64,000 bases of DNA. Source: Pseudomonadota bacterium. GTDB taxonomy: Bacteria > Pseudomonadota > Gammaproteobacteria > Burkholderiales > JBFMAC01. The notes beneath the pieces were generated by a model, which saw nothing but the letters and a program-made list of their open reading frames with translations, had not been told where the DNA came from and did no database searches. Location: positions 150,475 through 214,474 of the forward strand of contig JBFMAC010000001.1 in assembly GCA_040756015.1 (NCBI GenBank), read 5' to 3'. Of this stretch, positions 27,434 to 56,135 are shown in pieces (position 1 is the first letter of the stretch; each line of letters begins with the position of its first letter). A program made the position numbers and the translations under genes.

Positions 27434-27438
27434 TTCGC

Positions 27439-28380: not shown

Positions 28381-28415
28381 CCATGCCGTCCGCCCGTTAC
28401 AACCGCCGCAGGTAC

Positions 28416-28530: not shown

Positions 28531-28538
28531 TCGTGTAA

Positions 28539-35095: not shown

Positions 35096-35175
35096 CTCCA
35101 ACTCCATGACAGATCAGTGCGCATCAGCGCACGAACACCCTGTCGGCCAAGCCGCAGGGTTACCAAGTCAGGGGA

Positions 35176-35559: not shown

Positions 35560-36619
35560 GGCGGATTCAAGTACGAAGCGCAACAAAGATGAACCCGGTG
35601 ACGGGTGGCTGAGGATGCCAAGGCATCATGGCCGCTCAAACCGCCAAGTCCAAGTTGCCCGATGTACAAGCACCTCAGCCGAGAAGAACGATACCAAATC
35701 CACAGTCTCTTGAAAGCCAATCACACCATCAGCGAGATTGCCCGCCTGCTGGGTCGAAGCCGCAGCACCATCAGCCGCGAATTGAACCGCGGTCGTGGTC
35801 AGCGCGGGTACCGCGCTGAGCAGGCGTGCCGCAAGGCAGCCCAACGAGCGCAGCGCAGCCGCAACGCCCGACGCGTGAGTGCTCAGGTCTGGGGCGATGT
35901 AGTGTTCTACCTTGGACTGCAATGGAGTCCTGAGCAGATTGCCCAGAAGGTTGCAGTCAGCCACGAGAGCGTGTACCTGCGTGTCTATGCGGACAAGGCC
36001 GCTGGTGGCAAGCTGCACCAGAACCTGCGCAGTCAAAAACCTCGGCGCAAACGCTATCTACACGGCCGCGACAGACGCGGGCAAATCCCCAACAGACGCC
36101 CGATCAGCGAGCGGCCAGGCCATATTGAAGAGCGCAAGCAGGTAGGCCACTGGGAGGGCGACACCGTCATTGGCGCAGCACACAAGCAGGCCATCGTGAC
36201 TTTGGTAGAGCGCAAGAGCGGCTATGCCGTTTTGGCCAAGGTCAGCAACAAGACCGCTGATCTGGTGGGCCAAGCCATTGAGGACAAACTGGGGCCCTTG
36301 GCTGCGCGGGTGAAGACGTTGACGGTGGACAACGGAAAGGAGTTTGCCAACCACCAGGCCATCGATCAGGCCTTGGGCATCCAGACCTACTTTGCCGATC
36401 CGTATTGCAGCTGGCAGCGCGGAAGCAACGAGAACTTCAATGGGCTGCTGCGCCAGTACATCCCAAAGAAGCGGCGCATGGAAACCGTGACGGATGAAGA
36501 GCTGGCTATGATCCAAAACAGATTGAATCACAGACCTCGAAAGCGGCTCGGATTCAAGACACCCCACGAGGTGTTTCACGCCTCGTTAAACCGTGTTGCA
36601 CCTCGTACTTGAATCCGCC
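35560..36619 (+). mobile_element. IS30-family insertion sequence
   Basis: The 26-bp terminal IRs are GGCGGATTCAAGTACGAAGCGCAACA and the complement of TGTTGCACCTCGTACTTGAATCCGCC (22/26 match). Flanked by AAT/AAT (3-bp TSD, if the IR starts at G35560). Confidence 0.85.
35662..36612 (+). CDS. IS30-family transposase
   Basis: MYKHLSREERYQIHSLLKANHTISEIARLLGRSRSTISRELNRG is the IS30 HTH. A DDE region follows. Confidence 0.9.
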   Translation: MYKHLSREERYQIHSLLKANHTISEIARLLGRSRSTISRELNRGRGQRGYRAEQACRKAAQRAQRSRNARRVSAQVWGDVVFYLGLQWSPEQIAQKVAVSHESVYLRVYADKAAGGKLHQNLRSQKPRRKRYLHGRDRRGQIPNRRPISERPGHIEERKQVGHWEGDTVIGAAHKQAIVTLVERKSGYAVLAKVSNKTADLVGQAIEDKLGPLAARVKTLTVDNGKEFANHQAIDQALGIQTYFADPYCSWQRGSNENFNGLLRQYIPKKRRMETVTDEELAMIQNRLNHRPRKRLGFKTPHEVFHASLNRVAPRT

Positions 36620-36633
36620 AATAGATATTTGTT

Positions 36634-37955
36634 CAGTAGTGTCCGGTTAAAAGTCGAAGAGAAACAACTGTCTGGGTGAATTGCCGGGGTTTTCGGAAGA
36701 TGCCGATGTCGTAAAGGCTTGCTGCAAGGGCATCTTCTCGAAGAGGGTGACCGAGAGAATCTGTAGCAACGTGTAGAGCGAGGCGTCCAGGTTCAAGCGC
36801 TTCCTGACGATGGCGACGAGGACATATACGGACACGGCGATCCAAATCTGCGACTTGACTGCGTTTTCCGAGGTGCCGAAGAAGCGTTTGATCCGAAGAT
36901 GCTGCTTGATCCACTTGAAAAACAGCTCGACCTGCCAGCGGCTCTTGTGGAGCGCGCAGATGGTCAGCGCAGGCAAGGTCATCTGATTGGTGAGGAAGAC
37001 CAGCGTCTTGCCGGATTCGGCGTCCTTGAAACGGATGCGGCGCAGATGCTCGGGATAATCCTGGCGGGTGTAGAAGCCGTCGAGCGCGATGGTCTGGTCG
37101 CAGATGACGCCGGTACTGCGATCCGTGCTCGCCGAATAGACCCGATGAGCATCCAGGTTCGACTTGGCGCGGGTGACGAAGAAACTGCCGGCCAGATGCA
37201 GGACATGCAAACGAGCGAAATCGACGTAGCCGCGATCCATGACGTAGATGGCTCCCGCCTCGGGAATCAGCAGATCGAGGGCATGAACGTCGTGGAGCTT
37301 GCCGTCGGAGACATGGATGAAGCTCGGAATGCTGCCGCGCAGATCGAGCAGCGTATGCATCTTGACGGCGGCCTTGGTCGAGCGGAAATGCGCCCACGGG
37401 AACACCGACAAGCACAGATCGATGGTCGTCGAGTCCAGCGCATAGACGGTATTCGACAACTCCAGACCGAGATCCTCGCCGGCATACAGCTTCCTTGCCT
37501 GATCGATCAAACGTTGGGCGAAGTCTGCATAGATGCGCCAGTCGCGGCCCTCGTTGGCATCGGCCAGCGTCGAACGCCGCACCGGTTCGCGCAATCCCAT
37601 GTGGTAGAGCTTGCCAGCTTGTGCTGTCAGGCAGGCTTCGATATCCCTCAAGCTCTCCCGGTAGGTCAGTTGTGCAAACGCCATGATGCGGAACTGCTCG
37701 GCACAGGGCAGGGTGCGCACGCCACGGTCGCCGCCATAGCGCTTCACGTACCGGGCAAACGTGCTCCAGGGCAGAAAGTCCATGAGCTGAGCGAACAGGG
37801 TCTTGCCGGTGTTCATGGCAATCTCCGGGGGAAAACCCGGAAGACTGCCCGAATTGGCATTCGCCGTTCAAATCGACATCACCCTTCATCGCTCGGAATC
37901 CCGCTTCAGTCATGGCATGCAGCGATTCAACCCTTCATTTAACCGGACAGCAGTG
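36634..37955 (-). mobile_element. IS4-family insertion sequence
   Basis: Imperfect terminal IRs with a ...TGTCCGGTTAAA core. Has a 9-10-bp direct repeat, (G)ATATTTGTT, at 36624-36633 and 37955-37964. Confidence 0.8.
36647..37816 (-). CDS. IS4-family DDE transposase (DUF4372-type N-terminus)
   Basis: 389 aa, reading MNTGKTLFAQLMDFLPWSTFARYVKRYGGD... Confidence 0.85.
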   Translation of the reverse strand: MNTGKTLFAQLMDFLPWSTFARYVKRYGGDRGVRTLPCAEQFRIMAFAQLTYRESLRDIEACLTAQAGKLYHMGLREPVRRSTLADANEGRDWRIYADFAQRLIDQARKLYAGEDLGLELSNTVYALDSTTIDLCLSVFPWAHFRSTKAAVKMHTLLDLRGSIPSFIHVSDGKLHDVHALDLLIPEAGAIYVMDRGYVDFARLHVLHLAGSFFVTRAKSNLDAHRVYSASTDRSTGVICDQTIALDGFYTRQDYPEHLRRIRFKDAESGKTLVFLTNQMTLPALTICALHKSRWQVELFFKWIKQHLRIKRFFGTSENAVKSQIWIAVSVYVLVAIVRKRLNLDASLYTLLQILSVTLFEKMPLQQAFTTSASSENPGNSPRQLFLFDF

Positions 37956-38019: not shown

Positions 38020-39099
38020 TCATAGGGCCAGACTCATTGCCCATGCCACACTAGCAGCCAGCGGTAAGGTCAAAACCCAGGACAGCAAGACATTGCGCAG
38101 TGCATGCCAATCCAGCTTGCGCGCGCTGGCCCCCACCCCGGCAATTGCGCCGACCGAAACGTGCGTGGTCGAAACTGGCAGCCCGAGCTTGCTGGCAAAC
38201 AGCACGAGTGAGGCGGTGATCAGGTTGGCGGCGAGTCCCGAGGTGTGATCCATCCGGGTGACGCGCTGGCTCATGGTTTGCGCCACCTTCCTCGCGAACA
38301 GCACGCCGCCCAAGGCCATGGCCAATGCAACCAAGACCACCGATCCTTGAGAAGCGCCAAGACCCTGCGCCAACAGCAGCAAGGCGACCAGCTTCGGTGT
38401 GTCGTTCACGCCGCGTGCAAGGCAAATGGCCATCGCCGACCCGACATGCAGGCGATCGAGATATTTGCTGATCGAAAGACGCACCGGCATCGCCGCGCGT
38501 TCACATTCGCTGGCCTGGTCGATAACGACGATGGGGAGCATGGCCGACACCTGTTGCGCAGAAGCCGTCGCAGGTAGCGCAACAGGCTCCAGCGCAACGC
38601 AGGCGCAATCCTTCTCGACCGGTCTCACTTTGAGCAGGCGATAGGCGACGACGCCCAGCGCGGCCGCGAGCAGGGGGCTGACCAGAAGCGGCAAAAGAAA
38701 GGTGTCGAACAGCTTGGCGAAATGCACACCCCCTGCCTGTGCCGCGCCAGCGCCGACCAGCCCGCCGATGAGCGCATGCGTCGTTGAAATGGGGAAGCCC
38801 AGTCGGGTTGCGAGGAAGACGGTCACTGCCGCGCCCATGGCCACGCTGGCGATAAAGGGCAGGCTCTGTGTCGCATCGCTGGCCACCAGTCCCTTGCCCG
38901 AGAACTGCTGCACCAAGCCATCTGCCAACAGCCACGACAAGAGGCTGCCCACAATGGTCGCGATGGTCGCCAAGATCAGCGCCTGGCGGTATTCGAGCGT
39001 GCCAGACCCCCACACGGTGGCGAAGCCCTTGAAGTTGTCGTTAGCGCCGTTGGCGAAGGCGAGAAAGGTCGCCGCGATAATCAGTAGCCATTCCATCAT
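38020..39099 (-). CDS. PiT-family inorganic phosphate (possibly arsenate) transporter
   Basis: 359 aa with the GANDNFKGFATVWG signature. Last gene of the ars/rSAM operon (ATGA overlap with arsC). Confidence 0.85.
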   Translation of the reverse strand: MMEWLLIIAATFLAFANGANDNFKGFATVWGSGTLEYRQALILATIATIVGSLLSWLLADGLVQQFSGKGLVASDATQSLPFIASVAMGAAVTVFLATRLGFPISTTHALIGGLVGAGAAQAGGVHFAKLFDTFLLPLLVSPLLAAALGVVAYRLLKVRPVEKDCACVALEPVALPATASAQQVSAMLPIVVIDQASECERAAMPVRLSISKYLDRLHVGSAMAICLARGVNDTPKLVALLLLAQGLGASQGSVVLVALAMALGGVLFARKVAQTMSQRVTRMDHTSGLAANLITASLVLFASKLGLPVSTTHVSVGAIAGVGASARKLDWHALRNVLLSWVLTLPLAASVAWAMSLAL

Positions 39100-39644
39100 T
39101 GTTCTCCTCTATTCGATACCGCCTGCAAAGCCTCCGCGACCAGATATTTGCTCAGGCGCTCAAACGGCAATTCCATCAGGAAGGCAATGCGTGTGCGCAT
39201 CTCGGAGAACGTCGCGGCGAATGCGGCGCGGATCTCATCCACACTCCCCAACGCGGCGGCCGGATCGGCAAACTCCCAATGCACCCGCAGCGCATCACCG
39301 GGGAACACCGGACAAGGTTCTTGCGTGGCGTTCGCGCAGACGGTTAAAACGATATCGACTGGCTCGTCCGAATGCGTTTTGGCAAACTTTTCCCAGCTCT
39401 TGCTGCGATAGACCGAACCCTCGTCATTCAAGTGTGTGCGGATCTGGTCAATGGCAAACGGATTGACTTGACCAACGGGGTGACTTCCGGCGCTGACCGC
39501 CCGAATCCATGGCTTGCCCAGATGATTGAACAGCGCCTCGGCCATGATGCTGCGCGCCGAGTTGCCGGTGCAGAGCACCAGAATGGTTAAAGAACTGACC
39601 GGCGTTGAAACTACCGTTTGTCTGGCGTGTTCGTTCAGCAACAT
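39096..39644 (-). CDS. arsC: arsenate reductase, LMW-PTPase type
   Basis: Has the CTGNSARS P-loop. Confidence 0.85.
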   Translation of the reverse strand: MLLNEHARQTVVSTPVSSLTILVLCTGNSARSIMAEALFNHLGKPWIRAVSAGSHPVGQVNPFAIDQIRTHLNDEGSVYRSKSWEKFAKTHSDEPVDIVLTVCANATQEPCPVFPGDALRVHWEFADPAAALGSVDEIRAAFAATFSEMRTRIAFLMELPFERLSKYLVAEALQAVSNRGEQ

Positions 39645-40678
39645 GCGCCACCTCCCGATGTGCCATTGGCCGCCTCATCGAAAGGCAGGCTGCTGCCACA
39701 GCCCTCGAACAGGCCAAAGTGCCGATCAAAATCGCCAATAAATTCGAAATGTGGGGCGAAGCGGGTTTCGTTCAACATGCGCCAGGTGTTGCCGCAGACC
39801 GGGAATACTTTTCCGGTCGCGATGTCGTGATGCTTGTCCAGTACAAAACGATGCGGATGCTCAGCGATCGTGCCACGATAAATCACGGCCTGGCCGTAGT
39901 CCTCACAAGCACTTTCCAACGCGTCGAGCTTGAACAGGCGATAGGTCGCCGAATAGAAGCGCAGGTTGCCGACCCGCTCGGCCAGACTGGGGTCGGTGAT
40001 CGCCAGCGGCCGGTCTTCGACCAGGCGCGGATCGGCAAAACCCGTATCTTTGGCCAAGCGCAGAAAGTCGTTCCAGTACAGTGCGCCGCCAAGGCACTCG
40101 CCATACAACACCGGGTCGTTGCGCACCGACTCGGGCACCCGGCGATCCGCATACACATCCGAAAAATAGAGCTCGCCACCCGGCTTGAGCAGACGCTGCA
40201 CACCCCGCAGCACCGCTGCTTTGTCGGGCGAGAGATTCACCACGCAGTTGGAGACGATGACATCGAAGCTGCCCGGCTCCAGATCGAGCTCGTCGAGACG
40301 CTCGATATACCCTTTGAGGAAGCGCACGTTGTCGAAGCCAAAGCCTTGCGCGTGAAACGCATGATGGGTTCGCGCGACGGCGAGCTGCTCGTCGGTCATA
40401 TCGACGCCGACGACCTGACCTTCCGACCCAGCCAGTTGCGCCAGCGCATACACATCGCGCCCGGAGCCGCAGCCCAGATCCAGCACGCGGCAGCCCGCCA
40501 ACTGTTGCGGGCTCACGAGTCCGCAGCCGTAATAGCGCGAAAGCACCTCGGGATGAATGCGCGAAAGCAGCGGCTTGAGCCAGTCCGGCATTTGGCTGGC
40601 GTCGCAACACGCGCTGGTTTTGAGGTCTTGCGAGCTTTGCAGCTGCTTTCCGTAATAGTCTTGAACGACGGCATGCAT
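39635..40678 (-). CDS. arsM: arsenite S-adenosylmethionine methyltransferase
   Basis: 347 aa from ATG 40676-40678. SAM motif VLDLGCGSGRD, conserved Cys pairs (ACCD, CGNT) and a C-terminal ...GGGACC. Confidence 0.85.
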   Translation of the reverse strand: MHAVVQDYYGKQLQSSQDLKTSACCDASQMPDWLKPLLSRIHPEVLSRYYGCGLVSPQQLAGCRVLDLGCGSGRDVYALAQLAGSEGQVVGVDMTDEQLAVARTHHAFHAQGFGFDNVRFLKGYIERLDELDLEPGSFDVIVSNCVVNLSPDKAAVLRGVQRLLKPGGELYFSDVYADRRVPESVRNDPVLYGECLGGALYWNDFLRLAKDTGFADPRLVEDRPLAITDPSLAERVGNLRFYSATYRLFKLDALESACEDYGQAVIYRGTIAEHPHRFVLDKHHDIATGKVFPVCGNTWRMLNETRFAPHFEFIGDFDRHFGLFEGCGSSLPFDEAANGTSGGGACC

Positions 40679-40739
40679 GGCGAACGGTCTCCAGATAAAG
40701 AATGGGCTTATCCCTGAGTCGGTTCGCCAGCGCGATTTC

Positions 40740-41183
40740 TTACACTTGAATACCCGGCACCCCACGCTCGCCCTTGAGCCAGCGCCAACTGTCCAAGGCG
40801 TCGAAGATGAGGCTGATGCCGTTCACCACCAGCACCAACCCAACATAGGCCGCTTCAAGCTCTGCCATGCCCCCGGACGCCTGGCGCATATGCCAAAGCA
40901 AAAGGATTTCCAGCGCCCCCCAGATGAACAGATGGGGCACGGCCATCAGCCGGGTCATACCATGCGCCCACAGCATGATCGGAAGGTTGCTCACCACCAC
41001 AAGTAGCGCCGCGACGGCAGTGGCGCGGCCAGACCAAGTGTCCAGCAGGGCAAATGAAGCGGCGTTGACTGGCAGCAGAATCCCACCAACCCAGATCTGA
41101 ACCCAAACCGGCAAAGCACGAAACGAGTGCCAGCTACAGCGCCAGCGTGATGCCGGTGGAGAAGGCAATGCCTTTTCGTTCAT
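40740..41183 (-). CDS. small integral membrane protein
   Basis: About 147 aa with 4 TM helices. Start coupled to the upstream stop (ATGA at 41180-83). Confidence 0.6.
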   Translation of the reverse strand: MNEKALPSPPASRWRCSWHSFRALPVWVQIWVGGILLPVNAASFALLDTWSGRATAVAALLVVVSNLPIMLWAHGMTRLMAVPHLFIWGALEILLLWHMRQASGGMAELEAAYVGLVLVVNGISLIFDALDSWRWLKGERGVPGIQV

Positions 41184-41770
41184 GCGTGTTTCCCCGCCTG
41201 CCAACCGTTTGCCGACAACAGATCAGTGGCATGCGCCACAGCCGCTGGCTCCAAGGTCGTGCCCATGGCATCGTTCCAGCGGTTGAGGAATCCGAACAAA
41301 CTGATGACGGCCAACAACTCGACGACTTCGCCGTCATCCCAGTGCTGCCGCAGAGTTTCGGCAATACGCTCGTCCACGGCGCATGGCACACTGGCGGCGG
41401 CCAGCGCGAACTCCAGAGCCGCTTTCTCGGCGGCGTCGAACAACTCGCTTTCGCGGAAACGCCACAACGCTTCCAGCCGTTCGCGGCTGGCTCCGTAGCG
41501 GCTGGCCGCCAGCGCCGTGTGCGCCTGACAATAGCGACAGCCCTGCGCGCTGCTCGCGATCAGCGCGACCAGCCGCTTGAGCTCACTGCCGACGCGGCCA
41601 TGATTGGTCATGACCGCCCGGTTGAGCGCGATGAAGGCCTGGGCAATGGCTGGCCGGCGTTGCATCGTCAGCACGCTGTTCGGCGTGAAACCCAGCGTTT
41701 CCTGATACAGCTCGGCCAGTGCGGCGACTTCCGGGTCGTGGTTGACAGGCAGCGGTGGAACAAGTGGCAT
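41180..41770 (-). CDS. AhpD-like / carboxymuconolactone decarboxylase-family protein
   Basis: 196 aa with a CxxC (GCRYCQAH) in an AhpD-type context. Confidence 0.75.
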   Translation of the reverse strand: MPLVPPLPVNHDPEVAALAELYQETLGFTPNSVLTMQRRPAIAQAFIALNRAVMTNHGRVGSELKRLVALIASSAQGCRYCQAHTALAASRYGASRERLEALWRFRESELFDAAEKAALEFALAAASVPCAVDERIAETLRQHWDDGEVVELLAVISLFGFLNRWNDAMGTTLEPAAVAHATDLLSANGWQAGKHA

Positions 41771-41771
41771 C

Positions 41772-42524
41772 TCAGGGCTCCGTTGTGGTGTGCAGTGCAG
41801 GAAATCGGCACGGGTCATCGCGGCCGACAAAATGAAAATCAGCGAAGCCCGCGTGCGCGGCTTCACCGGTGTTGTCGGTATCGCTGGCCACCGCAAGCTG
41901 CGCGGTCGTGAGCTGATCGGTGCTGAATAGCCGACTGGCGTCGACCAGTACGTTGCGGCGCTCTTCGACCCATCGTTGGGCGCGGGCAGCCCCCGATTCG
42001 AGCACCACCATTCGGGTCAGATCGGTGTAGGCATTGGGCGCCTCGAAGCCGATGGAATGCGTGTTGTCCCAGACGTAGTTGACGGCGGCATCGGGTACCT
42101 GATTGCCGTATAACCCGCGCGCCACACCTAACTTGATCCGTTGCCCAAGCGTCAGCGCCGCCGTATCCATCGAAAAGGCGATGTAGACCCGGGCCGCGAA
42201 GTCGTCGCCCGATTTCTTTGTCAGGTCGGCGGTGCGCAGCGGCGCATCGATACGCCAGCGCCAGCACAGCACCGGCGTTTTGGTCAGGTCTACGCGCAGC
42301 GGGCGCGCCAGCATCGCCATGCTGGCCTGGGCTGTCGCTTCGATGGCGGTTACACCGTCCCAGTCACGCAATAGGTAGCGTGTCGGGGGCACTTTTTCCG
42401 AGGGCCTGACGATTTGCCAAGGAGCAGGGATCTCCGTCATCCCGGCAGCAAACCGACCGACGTCAAGCGCCTGTCCGCTGACCGTTGCCGAGCACAGCAA
42501 GACTAGAATGGGCGTGCGCTTCAC
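41772..42524 (-). CDS. DUF3047-family protein
   Basis: 250 aa from a GTG (GTGA overlap with the upstream stop). Signal peptide, then WDGVTAIEA...DDFAARVY. Confidence 0.65.
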   Translation of the reverse strand: MKRTPILVLLCSATVSGQALDVGRFAAGMTEIPAPWQIVRPSEKVPPTRYLLRDWDGVTAIEATAQASMAMLARPLRVDLTKTPVLCWRWRIDAPLRTADLTKKSGDDFAARVYIAFSMDTAALTLGQRIKLGVARGLYGNQVPDAAVNYVWDNTHSIGFEAPNAYTDLTRMVVLESGAARAQRWVEERRNVLVDASRLFSTDQLTTAQLAVASDTDNTGEAAHAGFADFHFVGRDDPCRFPALHTTTEP

Positions 42525-43138
42525 GACGCCAGCCAGCCCGGCGGCAAGGCCACCAAATCGGCAGGTTCGTCGATGTCGCGCAACATCGGTAGCTGCGCCA
42601 CCGTCCATCCCAAAGCACCGATCTGGCACAGCGTCTCAAACGCGACCGTGTCGGTGCTCCACGATATCCCTTGGAATACGCGAGGGCGATATTGCGTTAG
42701 ACCAAGCAATACGTAGCCGCCGTCCGTGCTGGGAATGATCACTGCGTCGTGTGACTGGAGTCGCACAGCGGCTTCCCGCAGTTGATCACGGGTTAGCCCA
42801 GGGCAGTCCGTGCCGATCAATAGAACAGCGTCCCGTTCGGCAAGACCACGCCGGGTAGCCCTTGCCAGTCGCGCTCCCAAATCGCCGTCCCCCTGGGGTT
42901 GCCATTCCACTGTCCAGGCGGGATCACGCCAGGCTTGCCATTCGGGTGCATTCGGCGCTGGCGTCACGCATAACTCCACCTCACCCACCTCGGCCGCCAA
43001 GGCCTCCGTGACGGTATGGCGCAGCATGCGCGCGGCCAGCTGAGCCGTGCCTTCCTCACCCAACGCCGGAATAAGGCGGGTCTTGGCGAGACCCGCCAAT
43101 GGGGCCTTGGCGAAGATCACGATCCGGATGGAACTCAT
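42521..43138 (-). CDS. DUF2064/TIGR04282-like transferase (rSAM-associated 'transferase 1')
   Basis: 205 aa, reading IVIFAKAPLAGLAKTRL...LIGTDCPG. Confidence 0.7.
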   Translation of the reverse strand: MSSIRIVIFAKAPLAGLAKTRLIPALGEEGTAQLAARMLRHTVTEALAAEVGEVELCVTPAPNAPEWQAWRDPAWTVEWQPQGDGDLGARLARATRRGLAERDAVLLIGTDCPGLTRDQLREAAVRLQSHDAVIIPSTDGGYVLLGLTQYRPRVFQGISWSTDTVAFETLCQIGALGWTVAQLPMLRDIDEPADLVALPPGWLAS

Positions 43139-43803
43139 CGGTAAGCCCTCGCAATGTCCTCCACCGGCGTACCCAGCCAGTAACGCCAACGCAACCACCA
43201 CATGAGCGCGATGGTGCGCCACACGCCGCGCTGCTCCCAGCGACGGCCCGAGGTGACGACTTGCAGCGCCAAACAGGCGGGCTTCCCTCCGGTTTTGAGT
43301 GCTCGGCAGATGTCGATGTCTTCCATCAGCGGTTGATCCGCAAATCCGCCGACTGCTTCAAACGCCTCACGCGTCATGAAAAGACCCTGATCGCCGGTGG
43401 CGATCCCGGAGAGGCGTGAACGCCAATTCATCAGGGCCGAGACCATGCGCAAAGCCATCGGTTTCCCGGCGATGCGCACATCGAAGCGTCCCCACTGATG
43501 GCTGCGCAGCGCCTGTGCGATGGCGATCATGGCCCCCGGCGGCAGCCGCGTGTCGGCATGCAAAAAAAGTAGGACGTCGCCGCTGCTCGCCGCCGCGCCC
43601 GCATTCATTTGGCGTGCCCGACCCGCTGCGCTCGTCAGAACACGAAACCCGGCTGCGCGTGCAATGGCTTCTGATCCATCCTGACTGCCGCCATCAACAA
43701 AAATGATTTCCACACCTGATCGGGCGAGTAGCACCAAGTGCTCGCACAAATCGGGCAGGCCTGTCGACTCATTGAGCATGGGGACTACGATGCTGAACTT
43801 CAT
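43135..43803 (-). CDS. family-2 glycosyltransferase, TIGR04283-like (rSAM-associated 'transferase 2')
   Basis: 222 aa, reading MKFSIVVPMLNE...FVDGGSQDGS...LFLHADT. Confidence 0.75.
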   Translation of the reverse strand: MKFSIVVPMLNESTGLPDLCEHLVLLARSGVEIIFVDGGSQDGSEAIARAAGFRVLTSAAGRARQMNAGAAASSGDVLLFLHADTRLPPGAMIAIAQALRSHQWGRFDVRIAGKPMALRMVSALMNWRSRLSGIATGDQGLFMTREAFEAVGGFADQPLMEDIDICRALKTGGKPACLALQVVTSGRRWEQRGVWRTIALMWWLRWRYWLGTPVEDIARAYR

Positions 43804-43805
43804 GC

Positions 43806-44636
43806 TTACCTCCGGCCGTCATTGAGACGCCAGTCGTAATCGCCAAAGCGGATCGCCAGCCTTCCACCGCGCAGATCGTTCGCTTGCCCGGCGTTCAGTC
43901 CGGCCACACCGGCATAACGCGCCAGAAAATCCGGCAACGCCTTATCGCCACGGAAGCCTTGCTCGAAATCCTCGCGGTACCACTTGAAGATGGGGGAAAC
44001 CTCCAGCGCATCGTCCGCGATCCGGTTTCGCGTCCGGTCGCCCAAGAAGCGCTTGGTCTGGTCTTCGAGTTGCTCGTCAAGTTTTTCCGCGCCATAGGCG
44101 TCGGGTCGTAGCGCCGGACAGCCGATGCTGGCGCAATTGACCGCAAAATGGATACGCGGATCACGATAGCGCCCCGACCCGCGAATCAATCCGTGTTCAA
44201 TGTCATCCAGCGAACGGGTTTGCCCGAGCAGGGACACAAACGGCTTCTTCCAGGGGGACTGGATGAAGGAACCCAGATCCTTGATGGACTTCAAATCCGG
44301 GTATCGGGTCAGAATCAACTGCACCGTGAAGGCGTTGTAGGCATTGATCAGAAACGCCAACTGTGCCTCCCGCGACCAACCATCGAAGCTCTGGCGCGAT
44401 ACGGCTGACAGGGTTGTCAAATAGCTCTGCAACTTATCCCTGTCGGTCGCCATACCCTGATAGTTCACGGTGCTCGCATGGCCGTCGCCAGTCCAGCGCA
44501 CATGTCGCTGAAGCAGATGGTTCCATGCGCCGTGATCGAAGCCCTGTGGCGTTTGGGCGTAGGCCGTCGCCGCCCCCAAGGAGAACGTAATGGCGACGGC
44601 CAGTCTGCGCAGCCAAACTTTCATCGTTGAAACCAT
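43806..44636 (-). CDS. DUF547-family protein
   Basis: 276 aa with a signal peptide. AFLINAYNAFTV...HFAVNCASIGCP is typical of DUF547. Confidence 0.75.
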   Translation of the reverse strand: MVSTMKVWLRRLAVAITFSLGAATAYAQTPQGFDHGAWNHLLQRHVRWTGDGHASTVNYQGMATDRDKLQSYLTTLSAVSRQSFDGWSREAQLAFLINAYNAFTVQLILTRYPDLKSIKDLGSFIQSPWKKPFVSLLGQTRSLDDIEHGLIRGSGRYRDPRIHFAVNCASIGCPALRPDAYGAEKLDEQLEDQTKRFLGDRTRNRIADDALEVSPIFKWYREDFEQGFRGDKALPDFLARYAGVAGLNAGQANDLRGGRLAIRFGDYDWRLNDGRR

Positions 44637-44640
44637 AGTC

Positions 44641-46797
44641 TTATCCCCTCATCCAGCGGTGATAGGCTTCCACCCATCCCAATACCCGCTGCGGTGCGTG
44701 GGCGCGCTTCCATTCCCCAGCCGCATATTTATTGGCCTCAGCCCAGGTGGGATACGGGTGGATCGTGGCCAGGATTTTGTTCAGCCCCAGCCCGTGCTTC
44801 ATGGCCAGCACGAACTCGGAGAGCAATTCCCCGGCATGCGCGCCGACAATCGTGACGCCCAAAATGCGATCCTTGCCCGGCTCGGTCAGCACCTTGATCC
44901 AGCCCTCGGCATGACCTTCGGCAATCGCGCGATCCAAGTCGTCCAGGCCATAGCGGGTTACCTCAAACGCGATGCCTTTCTCCCTAGCCTCGCGCTCATT
45001 GAGGCCCACCCGCGCAATTTCCGGATCGACGAAGGTCACCCACGGAATCACCGAATAGTCCACCTTGAAGCGTTTGAAGCGACCAAACAGCGCATTCACC
45101 GCCGCGTACCAAGCCTGGTGGGCGGCGGTATGGGTGAACTGATACGGGCCGGCCACATCGCCCGCCGCGTATATGTTGGGATAGAGCGTTTCGAGGTAAT
45201 CATTGGTCTGGATCGTGCGTTGCACCGGGATGCCCAGCTCTTCCAGTCCATAACCTTCCAGCCGCGCCTGGCGTCCGACCGCGACTACGATATCGTCGAA
45301 GGCGATGCGCCGCTCGCCGCCCGCCGCCGCTACGACCAGAACCTTGTCGTCGCCCTCGCGTTCGACGCGCAGCGCGCGATGCTCGACCAGCACCTCGACT
45401 CCATCGGCTTGCAAAGCACGGCGTGCGAAATCGGATACCTCATCGTCCTCACGCACCATTAGCCTGGGCGCCATTTCCACCTGAATGACAGCGGAACCGA
45501 GACGGGCAAAGCTCTGCGCCAACTCGCAGCCGATGGGGCCGCCGCCGAGCACGATGAGCCGCCCAGGAGCGCTGTCGCGATTCTTGAGGCGATCCCACAG
45601 CGTGTCCGAGGTGAGGTATTCGACCTTACCCAAACCCGGCAGCGGCGGTACAAACGGGCGAGCACCGGTGGCCAGCACGATGCTGCGGGCGCTCAGGCGT
45701 TCGGTTTTGCCTTGGGCGTCAGAGATCTCGACCGTCCACGGATCGACCAGCCGAGCCTTTCCCTGCCGGACATCCACACCGAGACCGGTATAGCGTTCGA
45801 TGCTGTCATGCGGCGCCACCGCGCCGATCACCTCATGCACCCGTGCCATCACCCGCTTGAACGAGAAGGTCGGCGCAGTGGATTCGAGACCAAAGTGGCC
45901 AGCATGGCGCATCTGATGCGCCGCTTTTGCGCTACGGATCAGTGCCTTGCTCGGCACACAACCGTAGTTGAGGCAATCGCCGCCCATCTTGTGGGCCTCG
46001 ATCAAGGTTACCTTGGCCTTGACCGCCGCAGCGATATAGGACGTTACGAGACCGGCAGCGCCAGCGCCTATCACGATCAGGTTACGGTCAAAACGGGTCG
46101 GACGCTGCCAACGCGCATACACGCGCCGCTGTTGCAACGCACGCAGTGCGCCTTTGGCGACCCAGGGGAATACTGCCAGCAGCGCGAACGAGCCCAGTAA
46201 GGCTAGGGACAAAATGTCGCTAGGCCGCTCGATCTGCGCCAGGCGGGTGCCGGCATTCACGTAGACCAACGTGCCCGCCAGCATTCCGAGCTGGCTCACC
46301 CAGTAAAACGTCCGAGCCCGCATCCTGGTCAGACCCAGCAAAAGATTGATCAAGAAAAACGGAATCACCGGCACCAGCCGCAAGGTGAACAGATAAAACG
46401 GCCCCTCTCGATTCACCCCCTCATTAATCGCCGTAAGCCGGGTGGCAAACCGCTGCTCGACCCAATCACGTAATAGATAGCGCGCCACCAGAAACGCCAG
46501 CAGCGCACCGAGGCTGGAGGCGAACGACACCAACACGGTGCCTTGAATCAGCCCAAACAATGCGCCGGCGGCCAGGGTCATCACGACCGCGCCCGGCAAG
46601 GACAGTGCCGCTACCGCGACATAGAGCAGAAAGAAGCCCGCCATCATCGACAATGGGTGTGCAGCTTGCCAGGCTTGAACGCGAGCGAGCTCAGCCTTCA
46701 GGGCTGCGAAGGTCAGCCATTGCGCACCGCCAAAATAAAAGAACAACCCAGCCAATGAAGCAATAGCCAGCAGCAAAATGATTTTTGTCTGTTTCAT
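44641..46797 (-). CDS. fusion of a DedA/TVP38-type membrane domain and a pyridine-nucleotide-disulfide oxidoreductase
   Basis: About 718 aa. The N-terminal ~220 aa are polytopic (RLVPVIPFFLINLLLG). The C-terminal part is a flavoprotein with the redox-active pair GGDCLNYGCVPSK. Confidence 0.8.
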   Translation of the reverse strand: MKQTKIILLLAIASLAGLFFYFGGAQWLTFAALKAELARVQAWQAAHPLSMMAGFFLLYVAVAALSLPGAVVMTLAAGALFGLIQGTVLVSFASSLGALLAFLVARYLLRDWVEQRFATRLTAINEGVNREGPFYLFTLRLVPVIPFFLINLLLGLTRMRARTFYWVSQLGMLAGTLVYVNAGTRLAQIERPSDILSLALLGSFALLAVFPWVAKGALRALQQRRVYARWQRPTRFDRNLIVIGAGAAGLVTSYIAAAVKAKVTLIEAHKMGGDCLNYGCVPSKALIRSAKAAHQMRHAGHFGLESTAPTFSFKRVMARVHEVIGAVAPHDSIERYTGLGVDVRQGKARLVDPWTVEISDAQGKTERLSARSIVLATGARPFVPPLPGLGKVEYLTSDTLWDRLKNRDSAPGRLIVLGGGPIGCELAQSFARLGSAVIQVEMAPRLMVREDDEVSDFARRALQADGVEVLVEHRALRVEREGDDKVLVVAAAGGERRIAFDDIVVAVGRQARLEGYGLEELGIPVQRTIQTNDYLETLYPNIYAAGDVAGPYQFTHTAAHQAWYAAVNALFGRFKRFKVDYSVIPWVTFVDPEIARVGLNEREAREKGIAFEVTRYGLDDLDRAIAEGHAEGWIKVLTEPGKDRILGVTIVGAHAGELLSEFVLAMKHGLGLNKILATIHPYPTWAEANKYAAGEWKRAHAPQRVLGWVEAYHRWMRG

Positions 46798-47762
46798 GCC
46801 GGGTCTCCATTTTTCAGCGCGCCACCACAACTGCTACCACAACCGGCTGTGCAACCGAAACAGTGATCGGCCACGCGGATCGGTGTGCCGTTCGGATCGT
46901 TCTGCAGCAAGTCGCGCAGATGCCGACGCCCGCCAGGCATCGGCAAACCCAACTGCTGGTTGAAGTCGCAGTCGTACAAATACCCTTGCCAATCCACGCT
47001 CACCAGGCTGCGGCACATCACGGAAGCGAGGTTTTCATTGCGATGATTGTTCTTGAGCAGGGTCATGTAGCCGTTGAACTGACCCTTCGAGATCAACCAG
47101 GAGCCGAAGCGGTTGATCGGCATGTTGGCCAGCGCGAACAATTGATTGAACACGATGCCGAAGTGCTCGAAAAGCTCGCGCTTGTAGGCCGCTTCCAGCG
47201 AAGCCTGATTTGGCGGCAAGCTGGGACCCTGCGGGTTGTAAACCAGGTTGAGGGTCAAACCGCTGCCGGACTGTCCGTAACCCAGCGCATTGAGTTTCTG
47301 CAAAGCGGCGATGCTCTTGTCGAACACGCCCTTACCGCGCTGCTTGTCCACGTTGTCCGCGCTGTAGCACGGTAGTGAGGCCACCACTTCCACTTGGTGG
47401 GCGGCGAGGAACTCGGCCAGATCCTCTTGGCCTGGCTCAAACAGGATGGTGAGGTTGCAGCGGTCGATGACATGCACGCCCAATTCATTAGCGGAGCGCA
47501 CCAGCGCACGGAACCCGCCGTGCAGTTCCGGGGCACCGCCAGTCAGATCCAAGGTCTTGATGCCTCTTGCTCGCAACACCTGCGGAATGAGCGCCAGCGT
47601 TGCCTCGCTCATCATTTCCTTGCGGGTCGGCCCGGCGTTGACATGGCAGTGCACGCAGGACTGATTGCAACGATATCCGAGGTTGACCTGCAGGGTCGTG
47701 AGGGTGTCGCGGGCAATGGCGGGAAAGTCGCCGACTTCCAGCAAGGGCAACGTGGCATGCAT
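46794..47762 (-). CDS. arsS: radical-SAM/Cys-rich protein, ArsS-type (arsenosugar biosynthesis family, TIGR04167-like)
   Basis: 322 aa from ATG 47760-47762 (AAGGAG SD). Has CNQSCVHC (CxxxCxxC) and a C-terminal Cys-rich tail HCFGCTAGCGSSCGG. Confidence 0.75.
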   Translation of the reverse strand: MHATLPLLEVGDFPAIARDTLTTLQVNLGYRCNQSCVHCHVNAGPTRKEMMSEATLALIPQVLRARGIKTLDLTGGAPELHGGFRALVRSANELGVHVIDRCNLTILFEPGQEDLAEFLAAHQVEVVASLPCYSADNVDKQRGKGVFDKSIAALQKLNALGYGQSGSGLTLNLVYNPQGPSLPPNQASLEAAYKRELFEHFGIVFNQLFALANMPINRFGSWLISKGQFNGYMTLLKNNHRNENLASVMCRSLVSVDWQGYLYDCDFNQQLGLPMPGGRRHLRDLLQNDPNGTPIRVADHCFGCTAGCGSSCGGALKNGDPA

Positions 47763-47912
47763 AAAAGGACTCCTTAGGCGAATGGCTAGGGGTTTCATCC
47801 CCCTCATAGGCCCTCAGTCGTCAGCTTTCGCCCATTTCTTACACAGAACAGCGTTGATCTGGGTGTAAGAACCAGGTCGTGGGCTACGACCAAGCTTCAC
47901 CAACCTCAACCC

Positions 47913-48494
47913 ATGGAGTCCATCATGACGCAACATTTCGTCGCGAAAGCCCTCAACCCCATCACGCTGGATACCGCTGACGCTGAGCAGAAGGCCGTAC
48001 TCGACGCCGCGCAGCAAGCTGTCGGTTTTATTCCCAACATGTACGCCAATATGGTCAATGTGCCCGGCGTGCTATCGACCTATTTGCATGGATATGCCGC
48101 TTTTCGTCAGAAGTCTGGCTTTAGCCCGGCCGAGCAAGAGGTCGTGTTTCTTGCCATCAGCCAATTCAACGGCTGCAACTACTGCACGGCGGCGCACAGC
48201 ATGCTGGCCGACAAGATGTCTGGCGTGCCCGCTCCGGTTCTGGCAGCGATCCGCGCCCACCAACCCATTCCAGATGCGAAATTGCAAGCGCTTTACAGCT
48301 TTGCTCAAGAAATGGTGAAGACTGGCGGCAAGCCGAGCCAGTCAACCGGTGAAGCCTTCCTTGCCGCTGGGTACACGGAAAACCACGCGTTGCAAGTGGT
48401 GCTGGCGTGCGCCGTCAAAACCTTGTCGAACTACAGCAACCATCTGTTTCAGACAGAGGTCGACGACAAGTTCGCAGCTTACAAGGTGGTCTGA
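47913..48494 (+). CDS. carboxymuconolactone decarboxylase (AhpD-like) family protein
   Basis: 193 aa with CxxC (GCNYCTAAH). Divergent from arsS. Confidence 0.75.
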   Translation: MESIMTQHFVAKALNPITLDTADAEQKAVLDAAQQAVGFIPNMYANMVNVPGVLSTYLHGYAAFRQKSGFSPAEQEVVFLAISQFNGCNYCTAAHSMLADKMSGVPAPVLAAIRAHQPIPDAKLQALYSFAQEMVKTGGKPSQSTGEAFLAAGYTENHALQVVLACAVKTLSNYSNHLFQTEVDDKFAAYKVV

Positions 48495-48529
48495 TGCAAT
48501 CGGTCCGGGTTGGTGAAAGAAGGCCAAGC

Positions 48530-48706
48530 ATGTCGGTACGCGCCTTTCTTCTCGACACCCTGACAAGAATCGGTTCTTCGATTTTTGCTGGCACGCTCGT
48601 ATCGTGTTTGATCGTAGAAAGACTGGAGCCTGTTCATTTGATTTTGATGGGGGTGGGGCTGATCTTCATGCTGAGCTCTTGGCCCCGCCAAGGAGAAAGT
48701 CCGTGA
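48530..48706 (+). CDS. small hydrophobic protein (tentative)
   Basis: 58 aa, MSVRAFLLDTLTRIGSSIFAGTLVSCLIVERLEPVHLILMGVGLIFMLSSW... Its end overlaps the grx GTG start. Confidence 0.35.
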   Translation: MSVRAFLLDTLTRIGSSIFAGTLVSCLIVERLEPVHLILMGVGLIFMLSSWPRQGESP

Positions 48707-48963
48707 AAACTGTCACCCTCTATAGCACCGACTGGTGCCCGTTCTGTGTGCGCGCCGAACAGTTGCTGGCGCGTAAGGGCGTGATGCCGGAAAAGATCAA
48801 CGTCGGCACGGCGCCTCATTTGCGGGAAGAAATGGTGAGCAAAAGCGGCGGGCGACGCAGCGTACCGCAGATTTTCATCGGAGAAACGCACGTTGGCGGG
48901 TTTGACGACCTGGCCGAATTGGATCGTCAAGGGCACCTGGATGCACTGCTTTCTGCCCCCTGA
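48703..48963 (+). CDS. grxC: glutaredoxin 3
   Basis: 86 aa from GTG 48703 (AGGAGAAAG SD). [19 protein letters not shown]...[15 protein letters not shown]. Confidence 0.85.
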
Positions 48964-49096
48964 TAGGAGCCACTGTAAGAATCTGCGGAGCTTTAACGAC
49001 TATGGCTTGTCTGGCGCGAGAAGTCCGTGTCATTTGAGACCGAAGCGCCAGAAGTCAATGCGGTCCGCCGCACTTTTCACTCAACAGGAGATCACC

Positions 49097-49399
49097 ATGA
49101 GCAAACGCACTACAGCTACCGCACTCACACTCGCCCTCGGCGCAGCACTCGCCACCGCCGCACTGCCGACCTTTGCCGCCGACGACATGATGGCCGGCAA
49201 GGAGAAGTGTTTCGGCGTCGCTCTGAAAGGCAAGAACGACTGCAAGGCCGGAGCGGGTACCACCTGCGCAGGCACGGCGAAGAAGGACTATCAGGGCAAT
49301 TCGTTCAAGCTGGTTCCCGCCGGCACTTGCGAGAAAACCGCATCGCCGACTTCGCCCACGGGCAAGGGCCAGCTTCAGGAATTCAAGGAAAAGGCCTGA
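49097..49399 (+). CDS. bufA: DUF2282 / BufA1-type bufferin precursor peptide
   Basis: 100 aa from ATG 49097 (CAGGAG SD). Sec signal peptide and four conserved Cys ([24 protein letters not shown]...AGTCEK). Confidence 0.8.
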
Positions 49400-49402
49400 G
49401 GA

Positions 49403-50317
49403 ATGGGGAGCCGTGCGATGACGAACTATCTTCAGATTGATCCTTCGCCTCGCACGGCACTCCCCCTGCGCGCCGGTCTCGGGCTCAAGCCCGAGCATTT
49501 CCGCGACATTCTCGACGCCCAGCCCTCCTTGGGTTTCTTCGAGGTTCACGCAGAGAACTACATGGTGGCAGGCGGCCCCTTTCACCACTACCTGACGAAA
49601 ATCCGCGAGCGCTTCGCGCTCTCAATTCACGGTGTCGGACTCTCCATCGGCGGCGAAGCGCTGCTGGATCGCGCCCACCTCGAACGGCTCAAGACACTAC
49701 TCGACCGCTATCAGCCGGAGTCTTTTTCTGAACATCTGGCTTGGTCGAGTCATGGGCAAAATTTCTACAACGACCTGCTGCCAGCTCCGTATACCGACGC
49801 CACGCTGCGTCGAGTTTGCGAGCACATCGACCAAACCCAGTCCGCACTCAAGCGCTCGATGCTGCTGGAGAACCCGGCCACCTATGTCGAGTTCGAGGCT
49901 TCCACCTGGAACGAGGCCGATTTCATTGCCGAGATTGTCCAGCGAACAGGCTGCGGGTTGCTATTGGACGTCAACAATGTCTTTGTGAGCGCCGTCAACC
50001 ACCAGCGCGACGCCATTGCTTACATCGACAGTTTGCCGTTGGCAGCGGTCGGCGAGATCCATCTGGCCGGGTTTGCCGAGGACGTCGACGCGGCGGGCGC
50101 GAGGCTGCTCATCGACAGTCATGGCGCCCCGGTAGCCGAGGCCGTCTGGGCGCTGTACGAGCACACGATCCGGCGTCTCGGACCTACACCCACCCTGATC
50201 GAGCGCGATCAGAACATCCCGCCATTCGGCGTGTTGCTGGCCGAAGCGCGGGCCGCTGAACGCATCATGGGCACGGTCGGTACGCGGCATGCCCATGCAC
50301 TGCTGGAGGACGTGTGA
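49403..50317 (+). CDS. bufB: DUF692 (MbnB-like) iron enzyme, BufB
   Basis: GLGLKPEHF...FFEVHAENY...HGVGLSIGG...SEHLAW is the DUF692 signature. The start could be 49403 or 49418. Confidence 0.85.
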
Positions 50318-51072
50318 TGGAAGCCTTCGCTAAACCGTTGCTCGATCCCGGATTGCCCCCGCCAACGGGCCTCAAGGCGTGGAACGGCTCCGACCCGGCG
50401 GCGCGCTACGCGGTGTATCGCAACAACGTCGTGATCTCGCTGATCGACGCTCTGGCCGATACTTTCCCGGTCGTGCGGCAACTCGTCGGCGAGGACTTTT
50501 TTCATGTCATGGCGCGTGAGCACGCCTGCAAGCATCCCCCCACCTCGCCGGTACTGGCATTCTACGGGCAGAATTTCCCCGATTTCATTGCCAACTTCGA
50601 GGCCGCTGCCAGCCTGCCATATTTGGCCGATGTCGCTCGACTGGAATGGGCCTACGTATGCGCCTTTCACGCGGCCGATGCGCAAAGCCTGGCACCCCAG
50701 GCTCTGTCCGGTCTATTGAGCCAGCCCGAGCGCTTAAGTCTGGCCCGTTTGCACTTCGCCCCAGCCGTGCGCCTGATTCGCTCGCGCCATGCCATCGTCT
50801 CGCTCTGGCAGGCCCACCAAAGCGAAGCAGATTGGTCAGGCATCGACCCAAGTCGTGCCGAATCGGTGCTCGTCGTGCGTCCGGAACTCAGCGTGCAGCT
50901 CATCCCTTTGAATGGGTCAGCCGCCGATTTTCTGGGCGAAATGATGGCGGGCCGTAGTCTGGCAGAGGCTTACGAGTGCTGTGCGCTGGACGACCCGCCA
51001 GACATCGCCGCCATTTTTTCCTTGCTGCTGCAGACGCATGCGCTCACGGCGCTGTCATTGATTGATGGATGA
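50314..51072 (+). CDS. bufC: DUF2063 partner protein, BufC
   Basis: 252 aa with a 4-nt overlap with buf[21 protein letters not shown]...[11 protein letters not shown]. Confidence 0.8.
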
Positions 51073-51082
51073 GGAGACCGCC

Positions 51083-51598: not shown

Positions 51599-51605
51599 GC
51601 GCGCA

Positions 51606-54402: not shown

Positions 54403-54425
54403 GGCATCGCTCCTCCATTATGTGA

Positions 54426-55993: not shown

Positions 55994-56135
55994 GCGATGT
56001 TCTCCTGTTGAATCGATGCGGGTTTGTCGTGCAGGCAGGCCAGGTTCTTACAGATCGCCTCCAACAAGTTGAAGGTGTAAGAAGCAGAAGCCTCGGAGCG
56101 ACTAAATGTCATCTTTCAACTTTTTGGACTAAGAC

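Follow-up and report, generated by a model that had tools for sequence, protein, structure and literature searches.

The locus analysed here lies in a 64,000-nucleotide (nt) stretch of DNA, the window, to whose positions all coordinates refer; judged by a DUF3047 match with 95% identity and by the contig described below, the host is closely related to Ralstonia pickettii. A look-up of the exact ArsS protein gave no record. At the centre of the locus is arsS, which encodes a radical S-adenosylmethionine (SAM) adenosyltransferase for dimethylarsenite (DMAs(III)) and heads an eleven-gene operon running on the minus strand from 47762 to 38020. To refine the gene starts, we used Shine-Dalgarno sites together with the gene calls of an R. 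pickettii contig, L081, with 94.5% nucleotide identity to the window (L081, L001, L009 and so on are labels of related loci or contigs). A scan of one genome per species gave 543 ArsS-encoding stretches, and the best 80 of the 543, all from Beta- and Gammaproteobacteria and with ArsS 68-80% identical to the window copy, were used for synteny. Window proteins were compared with these related loci, in a flank of 10 kb around ArsS, by tblastn, phmmer and all-against-all clustering; family counts refer to 79 loci and motif counts to 1.29 Mb in total.

Gene content of the arsS neighbourhood

The operon consists, in transcription order, of the following genes (bit scores are given with the model cutoff where there is one; aa, amino acids; TM, transmembrane):

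46794-47762, minus strand: ArsS, radical SAM adenosyltransferase for dimethylarsenite, 322 aa (TIGR04167, 469 bits, cutoff 300)
44641-46797, minus strand: fusion of a DedA/VTT membrane domain with an FAD/NAD(P)H disulfide reductase, 718 aa (VTT_dom, Pyr_redox_2, Pyr_redox_dim)
43806-44636, minus strand: DUF547 protein with signal peptide, periplasmic (PF04784, 102 bits)
43135-43803, minus strand: GT2 glycosyltransferase (TIGR04283, 274 bits, cutoff 182)
42521-43138, minus strand: DUF2064 protein with a CofC/MobA-like nucleotidyltransferase fold (TIGR04282, 208 bits, cutoff 134)
41772-42524, minus strand: DUF3047 protein with signal peptide, periplasmic beta-jelly-roll (PF11249, 210 bits)
41180-41770, minus strand: AhpD/CMD-like CxxC protein 1, AhpD1 (PF02627; GCRYCQAH motif)
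40740-41183, minus strand: small membrane protein with 3-4 TM segments (no Pfam or NCBIfam match)
39635-40678, minus strand: ArsM, As(III) SAM methyltransferase, 347 aa (full-length match to PDB 5evj)
39096-39644, minus strand: ArsC, arsenate reductase of the low-molecular-weight (LMW) phosphatase type (LMWPc domain; CTGNSARS P-loop, CX5R)
38020-39099, minus strand: PiT/PHO4-family oxyanion transporter (PF01384, 228 bits)

The junctions between these genes, in the same order, are -4, +4, +2, -4, -4, +1, -4, +61, -10 and -4 nt. Gene order and strand, and mostly 4-nt overlaps at the refined junctions, are thus as given for a tight minus-strand operon in a preliminary description of this DNA. The family assignments made there were likewise upheld by hidden Markov model (HMM) or PDB comparison, with TIGR04167, TIGR04283 and TIGR04282 above their cutoffs and DUF547 and DUF3047 matched.

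ArsS combines Radical_SAM (PF04055) and DUF3641 (PF12345) domains in HMM searches and contains a CNQSCVHC cluster motif (CX3CX2C) and the C-terminal Cys-rich motif CFGCTAGCGSSCGG. An AAGGAG Shine-Dalgarno site precedes its ATG at 47762. Because the gene has no in-frame TGA, the protein represents the Cys form and not the selenocysteine (Sec) form. ArsM aligns with two solved ArsM structures, 5evj (365 bits over residues 2-345) and 4fr0 (307 bits), and all four catalytic Cys are aligned (SACC, YGCG, SNCV, GECL). In ArsC, the distal Cys pair aligns with C82/C89 of Bacillus subtilis ArsC (1jl3), and the top PDB match is 8p5n, an LMW phosphatase family protein. The DedA-flavoprotein fusion begins with about five TM segments, followed by a class-I pyridine-nucleotide disulfide reductase part with an intact CLNYGC centre and the redox-active disulfide GGDCLNYGCVPSK. 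The DUF547 family has an invariant HFAxNCASxGCP motif with two Cys, and the DUF2064 protein further matches NTP_transf_3 and CofC. The 4-TM protein has 133 homologues, all unnamed; in other genomes its gene adjoins a sigma/anti-sigma/DedA-FAD module or an HD_5 gene.

Divergently transcribed from arsS is a translationally coupled trio of genes:

47925-48494, plus strand: AhpD/CMD-like CxxC protein 2, AhpD2 (PF02627, TIGR00778 core domain; GCNYCTAAH)
48494-48706, plus strand: small 2-TM open reading frame (ORF), 70 aa (junctions TGATG and GTGA)
48703-48963, plus strand: glutaredoxin 3, Grx (CPFC; TIGR02181, 112 bits, cutoff 90)

The starts of ArsS, AhpD2 and Grx were corrected to 47762, 47925 and 48703. 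The small ORF, previously listed as a possible 58-aa membrane peptide, is real and conserved: it spans 70 aa from the ATG at 48494, or 58 aa from the second Met, is an annotated gene in L082, and has copies 51-70% identical in three other genera (L009, L018, L027). AhpD2 homologues, 36-65% identical, lie near ArsS in eight loci. AhpD1 scores 17 bits against the TIGR04169 cutoff of 120 and AhpD2 does not match this model; both belong to another AhpD subfamily, with an analogous role as neighbours.

The preliminary description had ended the system at 48963. This boundary is too narrow, since a conserved neighbourhood with a common promoter motif reaches 57002, and the system probably constitutes a regulon of about 19 kb (38020-57002). 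The added part contains:

49097-52394, plus strand: bufferin operon (BufA, MNIO BufB, DUF2063, DoxX) and a C92-like gene (NF050167 for BufB, 389 bits, cutoff 310; PF09836; DoxX; Peptidase_C92)
52379-52600, minus strand: small soluble zinc-finger (HxxxCxxC) anti-sigma factor (zf-HC2 in L081 and L084)
52594-53235, minus strand: extracytoplasmic function (ECF) sigma factor (TIGR02943/PRK12544, 337 bits, cutoff 287)
53228-54402, minus strand: NrtS-like small membrane protein and HD_5 phosphohydrolase (NF038050, 40.6 bits, cutoff 25; PF13487)
54426-55532, minus strand: TIGR03169 pyridine-nucleotide disulfide oxidoreductase (333 bits, cutoff 310)
55532-55993, minus strand: 153-aa protein (ORF153), first gene of the sigma operon (no family match; one homologue, at the same position in L018)
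56136-57002, plus strand: homologue of S-methyl-5'-thioadenosine phosphorylase, MTAP (TIGR01694, 311.6 bits, cutoff 274.85)

MTAP also aligns over its full length with solved MTAPs (4glf, 376 bits; 1wta, 240 bits). The HD_5 protein has a C-terminal Cys-rich ribbon. Bufferin is a copper-binding ribosomally synthesized and post-translationally modified peptide (RiPP).

No arsR, arsB/acr3 or arsA lies between 24 and 64 kb, as noted before. Of the canonical ars operon, neither the ArsR repressor nor an arsenite efflux pump (ArsB/Acr3, with or without ArsA) turned up among the ORFs scanned from 24 to 58 kb. The efflux pumps ArsB, Acr3, ArsP, ArsK and ArsJ are all absent from the regulon. An Rfam scan of 38-57 kb found no RNA families or riboswitches.

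A shared promoter motif and a sigma/anti-sigma pair

The motif TGTAAGAA-N15-CGAC has six exact copies in the window, where 0.08 would be expected, each 30-100 nt upstream of, and pointing at, the first gene of a transcription unit:

47817-47843, minus strand: arsS operon (in 24 related loci, ArsS is likewise preceded by the motif at a distance of at most 75 nt)
40718-40744, minus strand: internal, before arsM-arsC-pit (same position before arsM in L001, L009, L029 and L079)
47864-47890, plus strand: ahpD2-small TM-grx
48974-49000, plus strand: bufA-bufB-DUF2063-doxX-C92 (before BufA also in L009 and L017)
56026-56052, minus strand: ORF153-TIGR03169-HD-NrtS-sigma-anti-sigma
56076-56102, plus strand: MTAP (before MTAP in five other loci)

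ECF promoters typically consist of two blocks in this way, with a short -10 element of the CGxC type. The internal copy, a predicted promoter, falls in the sole 61-nt gap of the operon, between the 4-TM gene and arsM; in this the transcription structure differs from the eleven-gene operon that had been assumed. A divergent promoter had also been placed at 47763-47912. This region does carry predicted promoters, in the form of two back-to-back ECF-type motifs, in place of an ArsR-type operator. It contains a perfect 9-nt inverted repeat, and the repeated word (four copies, 0.1 expected) recurs before arsM and between ORF153 and MTAP. We considered a repressor operator and ruled it out: before arsM, bufA, ORF153 and MTAP, the 8-mer is present in a single orientation with CGAC exactly 15 nt downstream. 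Because the same 8-mer-N15-CGAC stands singly before these other units, the inverted repeat is read as two back-to-back promoters.

With at most one mismatch, the motif has 69 copies in the 1.29 Mb of related loci, against about six expected. Fifty of the 69 lie just upstream of genes of the families described here, 24 before ArsS and the others before MTAP, ArsM, C92-like, TIGR03169, BufA and sigma genes. Motif pairs occur between MTAP and the TIGR03169 gene in L001, L017, L018, L029 and L044. The exact motif is commoner in loci with the sigma gene in the flank (10 of 19) than in those without it (11 of 61).

The sigma factor has regions 2 and 4 (PF04542 and PF08281), and orthologues 57-78% identical are encoded in 13 ArsS loci. 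Its gene adjoins that of the anti-sigma factor, a soluble protein of about 73 aa in which an N-terminal Cys and H-x3-C-x2-C are present in nearly all of 16 homologues (alignment of 17); this Cys/His pattern is the signature of a zinc-containing anti-sigma (ZAS) factor. As the motif also heads their own operon, the genes have the layout of an ECF/ZAS pair, and the operon from ORF153 to sigma/anti-sigma is predicted to be autoregulated. We infer a switch triggered by thiol-reactive species, for which arsenic(III) species are obvious candidates: As(III) or other soft metals would attack the Cys/Zn site of the anti-sigma factor and free the sigma factor. Inclusion of the bufferin operon is a hint that other soft metals may act as well.

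The pair resembles the ZAS system SigR-RsrA: an ECF sigma factor goes together with an anti-sigma factor that is small and soluble and has HxxxCxxC and an upstream Cys, and autoregulation is predicted. In contrast to SigR, the window sigma factor belongs to another group (TIGR02943/PRK12544), the motif TGTAAGAA-N15-CGAC differs, and the regulon consists of organoarsenical and bufferin genes. The regulation of bufferins by RpoQ/gig in Cupriavidus was considered as the same system and rejected: RpoQ is an ECF16 sigma factor with a membrane-bound anti-sigma factor and different motifs.

A separate observation concerns the Marinobacter-like contig L084 (4056-11375), which contains the same sigma factor, zf-HC2 anti-sigma factor, C92, DedA-flavoprotein and 4-TM module. 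There the module is paired with an Rv1681-like radical SAM enzyme in place of ArsS, an SSF transporter and a 319-aa protein, and no promoter motif was seen.

Conservation among related loci and the candidate pathway

The DedA-flavoprotein (68 of 79 loci), GT2 (62) and DUF2064 (59) form the core around ArsS, and GT2 is always followed by DUF2064, an adjacent pair in the window and in 59-62 of the 79 loci. Accessory families comprise ArsM (31-32 loci, 73-82% identical), MTAP (29), TIGR03169 (28), DUF3047 (26) and DUF547 (20), followed by the ECF sigma factor (19), the anti-sigma factor (16), PiT (10), C92-like (9; the window gene spans 51606-52394), AhpD2-like (8), the bufferin maturase BufB (5) and ArsC (3-4); the NrtS-like and HD_5 genes are each found in five loci. 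All eleven genes of the operon occur together in none of the 80 species-level loci, and only R. pickettii relatives have the full set. The linkage of the core to ArsM and PiT, which had been singled out as the special part of the locus, is by these counts recurrent and not unique: ArsM follows the core in about 40% of the 80 loci, and PiT follows ArsM in 10 of them. Operons of the Polaromonas type (L058, L062, L078) have the order MTAP-ArsS-GT2-DUF2064-ArsM-PiT.

MTAP copies within 10 kb of ArsS are 62-75% identical to that of the window. In 10 loci the gene shares the strand of ArsS and precedes it by 6-39 nt, directly upstream; in seven more it is adjacent in another orientation; by chance, a single-copy gene would be placed in such an ArsS flank in well under 1% of genomes. 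The TIGR03169 gene is mostly divergent from MTAP. Elsewhere, neighbours of ArsS clusters include Pst-like and PhnD/PhnE-like oxyanion ABC transporters (PstB in 17 loci, with PstS-like proteins and PstC as well), for example at L027 10378-11211, L035 8591-10247, L013 13141-14049 and L033 4382-5260; most score just under the phosphate-transporter cutoffs. Their recurrence supports a dedicated uptake function.

ArsS adenosylates DMAs(III) to 5'-deoxy-5'-dimethylarsinoyl-adenosine (DDMAA) (PMC13598754; also Xue et al. 2019), and in Synechocystis arsM and arsS are co-transcribed (Xue et al. 2019, cited in bioRxiv 10.1101/2022.09.23.509062). The chemistry of ArsM and ArsS that the preliminary description took from cyanobacteria agrees with both reports, and the window ArsS is, by analogy with the Synechocystis enzyme, consistent with a DMAs(III)-adenosylating enzyme. 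The locus is probably a proteobacterial form of an ArsM/ArsS arsenosugar-type pathway, encoded in a regulon under a dedicated ECF sigma factor with a cytoplasmic zinc-finger anti-sigma factor. The core of the earlier organoarsenical interpretation, namely uptake, reduction, methylation, adenosylation, glycosyl-type tailoring and thiol-redox helpers, is consistent with all the evidence and with the NCBIfam names, while its boundaries, the weight it gave to ArsM/PiT linkage and its transcription structure are revised as described above.

What the sequences show is gene content, family membership, conserved synteny and the common promoter motif. From folds and gene order, we infer a route in which uptake and reduction in this context, the steps after DDMAA and the identity of the product would be as follows. 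PiT would import arsenate, as Pst-like systems would supply it in other genomes, ArsC would reduce it, ArsM would yield dimethylarsenite, and ArsS would place the 5'-deoxyadenosyl group on arsenic to give DDMAA. Because DDMAA is a structural analogue of methylthioadenosine (MTA), the co-regulated MTAP homologue is proposed to phosphorolyse it to an arsenical alpha-ribose-1-phosphate. CofC/MobA-fold nucleotidyltransferases join a phosphate ester to a nucleoside monophosphate, and DUF2064 may activate the arsenical ribose-1-phosphate as a nucleoside diphosphate sugar, from which the TIGR04283 GT2 would move the arsenoribosyl group onto a glycerol-type or lipid-linked acceptor. An inverting GT2 would produce the beta-riboside configuration, which is that of natural arsenosugars. 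Membrane or periplasmic steps are suggested for three proteins, by the DedA domain of the fusion and by the signal peptides of DUF547 and DUF3047. Arsenic may be kept trivalent and thiols reduced by both AhpD-like CxxC proteins, Grx and both flavoprotein reductases (the DedA fusion and TIGR03169).

Only tentatively do we propose the fuller version of this scheme, in which MTAP, DUF2064 and the TIGR04283 GT2 are the missing steps after DDMAA (phosphorolysis, nucleotide activation and ribosyl transfer), heterotrophic Beta- and Gammaproteobacteria use them with the DedA-flavoprotein, DUF547 and DUF3047 to make a membrane- or envelope-directed arsenosugar conjugate, arsenate is imported deliberately, and the whole is under a previously undescribed ECF/ZAS switch that senses arsenic or thiols.

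Several observations weigh against the arsenosugar-type pathway or parts of it. ArsM is missing within 10 kb in about 60% of the related loci, and ArsC is present in no more than 3-4, so the core could use another substrate in some hosts. The window ArsM falls below the NCBIfam cutoffs (NF008823, 169 bits against 263; NF038099, 93 against 400), which suggests a distinct subtype outside those models, and ArsC is below the cutoff of TIGR02691 (65 bits against 174). MTAP could merely remove 5'-deoxyadenosine or be the single housekeeping copy of the host. The AlphaFold2 model of DUF547 (pLDDT 88.8) has no fold relative in the PDB by Foldseek (best E = 2.5), and that of DUF3047 (pLDDT 90) gives weak matches (TM-score 0.4-0.5) to jelly rolls of CBM4, GH11, GH12 and FAP20; the roles of both proteins are guesses. 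It is co-occurrence that links the sigma factor to the promoter, and the motif was not found in the more distant loci L084 and L085. That the regulon includes the copper-peptide (bufferin) operon speaks for a metal/thiol stress response broader than an arsenic-specific one.

Extending this last point, the genes might constitute a general thiol/soft-metal stress regulon (Cu, Au, Cd, Hg, As, oxidants), with the ArsS cluster as one detoxification branch and its product as a waste form of arsenic, which we consider rather improbable. Such a role would fit the bufferin operon with the same promoter motif, the position of the regulon in a mer/cus metal-resistance region, the ZAS-type HxxxCxxC of the anti-sigma factor and the abundance of thiol-redox proteins (two AhpD-like proteins, Grx and two flavoprotein reductases), as well as the Marinobacter-like locus, where the sigma/anti-sigma/C92/DedA-FAD module is paired with a different radical SAM enzyme. 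However, a dedicated arsenate/phosphate importer (PiT here, Pst-like elsewhere) argues for deliberate acquisition of arsenic, and the regulon is without ArsB, Acr3, ArsP, ArsK or ArsJ efflux. A stress regulon is also largely compatible with an arsenosugar-type pathway, from which it differs in purpose and inducer specificity.

The role of MTAP bears on a second alternative. MTAP-type enzymes cleave 5'-deoxyadenosine, as in the dihydroxyacetone phosphate (DHAP) shunt and in MTA salvage. The window enzyme might likewise stand outside the pathway and clear inhibitory 5'-deoxyadenosine, or else aid arsenate reduction by arsenolysis, with GT2 and DUF2064 acting on a non-arsenical substrate. Purine nucleoside phosphorylase promotes arsenate reduction in vitro, according to references given in PMC12608789, and in these clusters ArsC is rare (3-4 of 80) and MTAP common. 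We nevertheless regard this as unlikely: MTAP, DUF2064 and GT2 form a logical series from phosphorylase through nucleotidyltransferase to glycosyltransferase and share an operon with ArsS in at least 10 genomes, and most radical SAM clusters do without a private nucleosidase.

That the ArsS-DedA-FAD-GT2-DUF2064 core natively serves another chalcogen or metalloid such as selenium, with ArsM, ArsC and PiT as an add-on in some lineages, is highly improbable. In its favour, most related loci have no ArsM in the flank, selenoprotein forms exist in the TIGR04167, AhpD-like and Grx-like families, and NCBIfam describes TIGR03169 as the "N-terminal to SelD" family. Against it, ArsS-family activity was demonstrated with DMAs(III), and ArsM is the most conserved accessory (73-82%), in the same operon and preceded by a regulon promoter motif of its own. 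Genomes without ArsM in the 10-kb flank may encode it elsewhere, and selenoprotein variants reflect Cys/Sec exchange in enzymes and not the substrate.

Returning to the arsenosugar-type pathway, NCBIfam names TIGR04167, TIGR04283 and TIGR04282 "arsenosugar biosynthesis" proteins (formerly "rSAM/selenodomain-associated", with TIGR04169), and genome papers reuse these names. The basic reading is not new because this naming already states the same. The window ArsS, GT2 and DUF2064 exceed the cutoffs of these neighbourhood models and an AhpD-like protein is present, although the AhpD-like proteins of the window lie outside TIGR04169, and the model names are based on gene neighbourhood, not on experiment. 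In the libraries and searchable literature, this annotation does not extend to MTAP, TIGR03169, the sigma/anti-sigma pair or the promoter motif. As far as searched there, the extension by MTAP and TIGR03169, the dedicated ECF/ZAS regulon with its conserved motif and the inclusion of the bufferin operon are new. Our literature searches found no experimental work on the GT2, DUF2064, DUF547, DUF3047 or DedA-flavoprotein partners, and no functional work on DUF3047, the TIGR families or a phosphorylase acting on dimethylarsinoyl-adenosine.

Like Synechocystis sp. PCC 6803, with its co-transcribed arsM and arsS, the locus combines ArsM with a TIGR04167 radical SAM enzyme. In contrast, the window ArsM is not of the cyanobacterial subtype (NF038099), its nearest counterpart being algal-type ArsM (5evj), the bacterium lives heterotrophically, and the cluster adds the DedA-flavoprotein, GT2, DUF2064, DUF547, DUF3047, MTAP, ArsC, PiT and ECF sigma control. 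We know of no arsenosugar from such bacteria. To MTAP (MtnP) of MTA and 5'-deoxyadenosine salvage, the window homologue is similar in scoring above the TIGR01694 equivalog cutoff and in its full-length alignment with solved MTAPs; it differs in that its gene sits inside a radical SAM/arsenic cluster or shares the regulation of one, and the arsenical MTA analogue is proposed as its substrate. With the canonical arsRBC, arsRDABC and acr3 operons the locus shares ArsC in a metal-resistance context, but it has no ArsR, ArsB/Acr3/ArsA or efflux, with an importer-like PiT and predicted ECF sigma regulation instead.

Arsenosugars and arsenolipids are the main organic forms of arsenic in marine food webs, and to our knowledge only two steps of arsenosugar biosynthesis, those of ArsM and ArsS, have been shown experimentally. 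The locus and its roughly 80 relatives provide a coherent set of candidates for the remaining steps (a phosphorylase, a nucleotidyltransferase-like protein and a glycosyltransferase), which, with their regulation, become directly testable. The minimal six-gene operons of the Polaromonas type make direct expression in E. coli feasible, and the motif with the sigma/anti-sigma pair, which may represent a new class of metalloid-responsive control without ArsR, is a ready reporter for an inducer search. The pathway appears to be widespread in non-photosynthetic soil and water bacteria, which would shift the presumed origin of organoarsenicals.

Genomic setting

The regulon is flanked by a mer/cus metal-resistance segment on one side and by chromosomal-looking genes (AsmA, three tRNAs, KatG) on the other, with a backbone resembling an integrative and conjugative element (ICE) further left. 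A plasmid origin was considered and dropped, as PLSDB gave no near match. Just downstream of PiT lies one further feature:

35560-37954, no strand assigned: double insertion sequence (IS) insertion, 2395 bp, with an IS30 transposase and a DUF4372+DDE_Tnp_1 transposase

This insertion, between PiT and a 117-aa ORF, is missing from R. pickettii L081, disrupts no gene of the system and stands outside it. An ORF at 36633-37913 (426 aa, no family) was discarded as a wrong frame; the true gene is a DDE transposase at 36647-37816.

The mer/cus segment (27026-35529) contains merR/merT/merP-like genes followed by a cusCBA-like resistance-nodulation-division (RND) efflux system. The 117-aa ORF (35176-35529), which precedes the RND system, is rich in Cys, His and Met and matches no family. 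Within the ICE-like backbone, marked by an SNF2-type helicase (2822-5194), a DUF6094 methyltransferase (5626-6798), a topoisomerase (15342-17384) and ParA (23369-24259), four strong radC RNA motifs (RF01754, 90-124 bits) lie on the minus strand at 7505-7657, 11118-11267, 12669-12829 and 14617-14762. On the opposite side of the regulon, three consecutive tRNA genes (60886-61168, plus strand) lie beside AsmA (58445-60670) and a catalase-peroxidase (62008-63999), an arrangement that resembles ordinary chromosome flanking an island.

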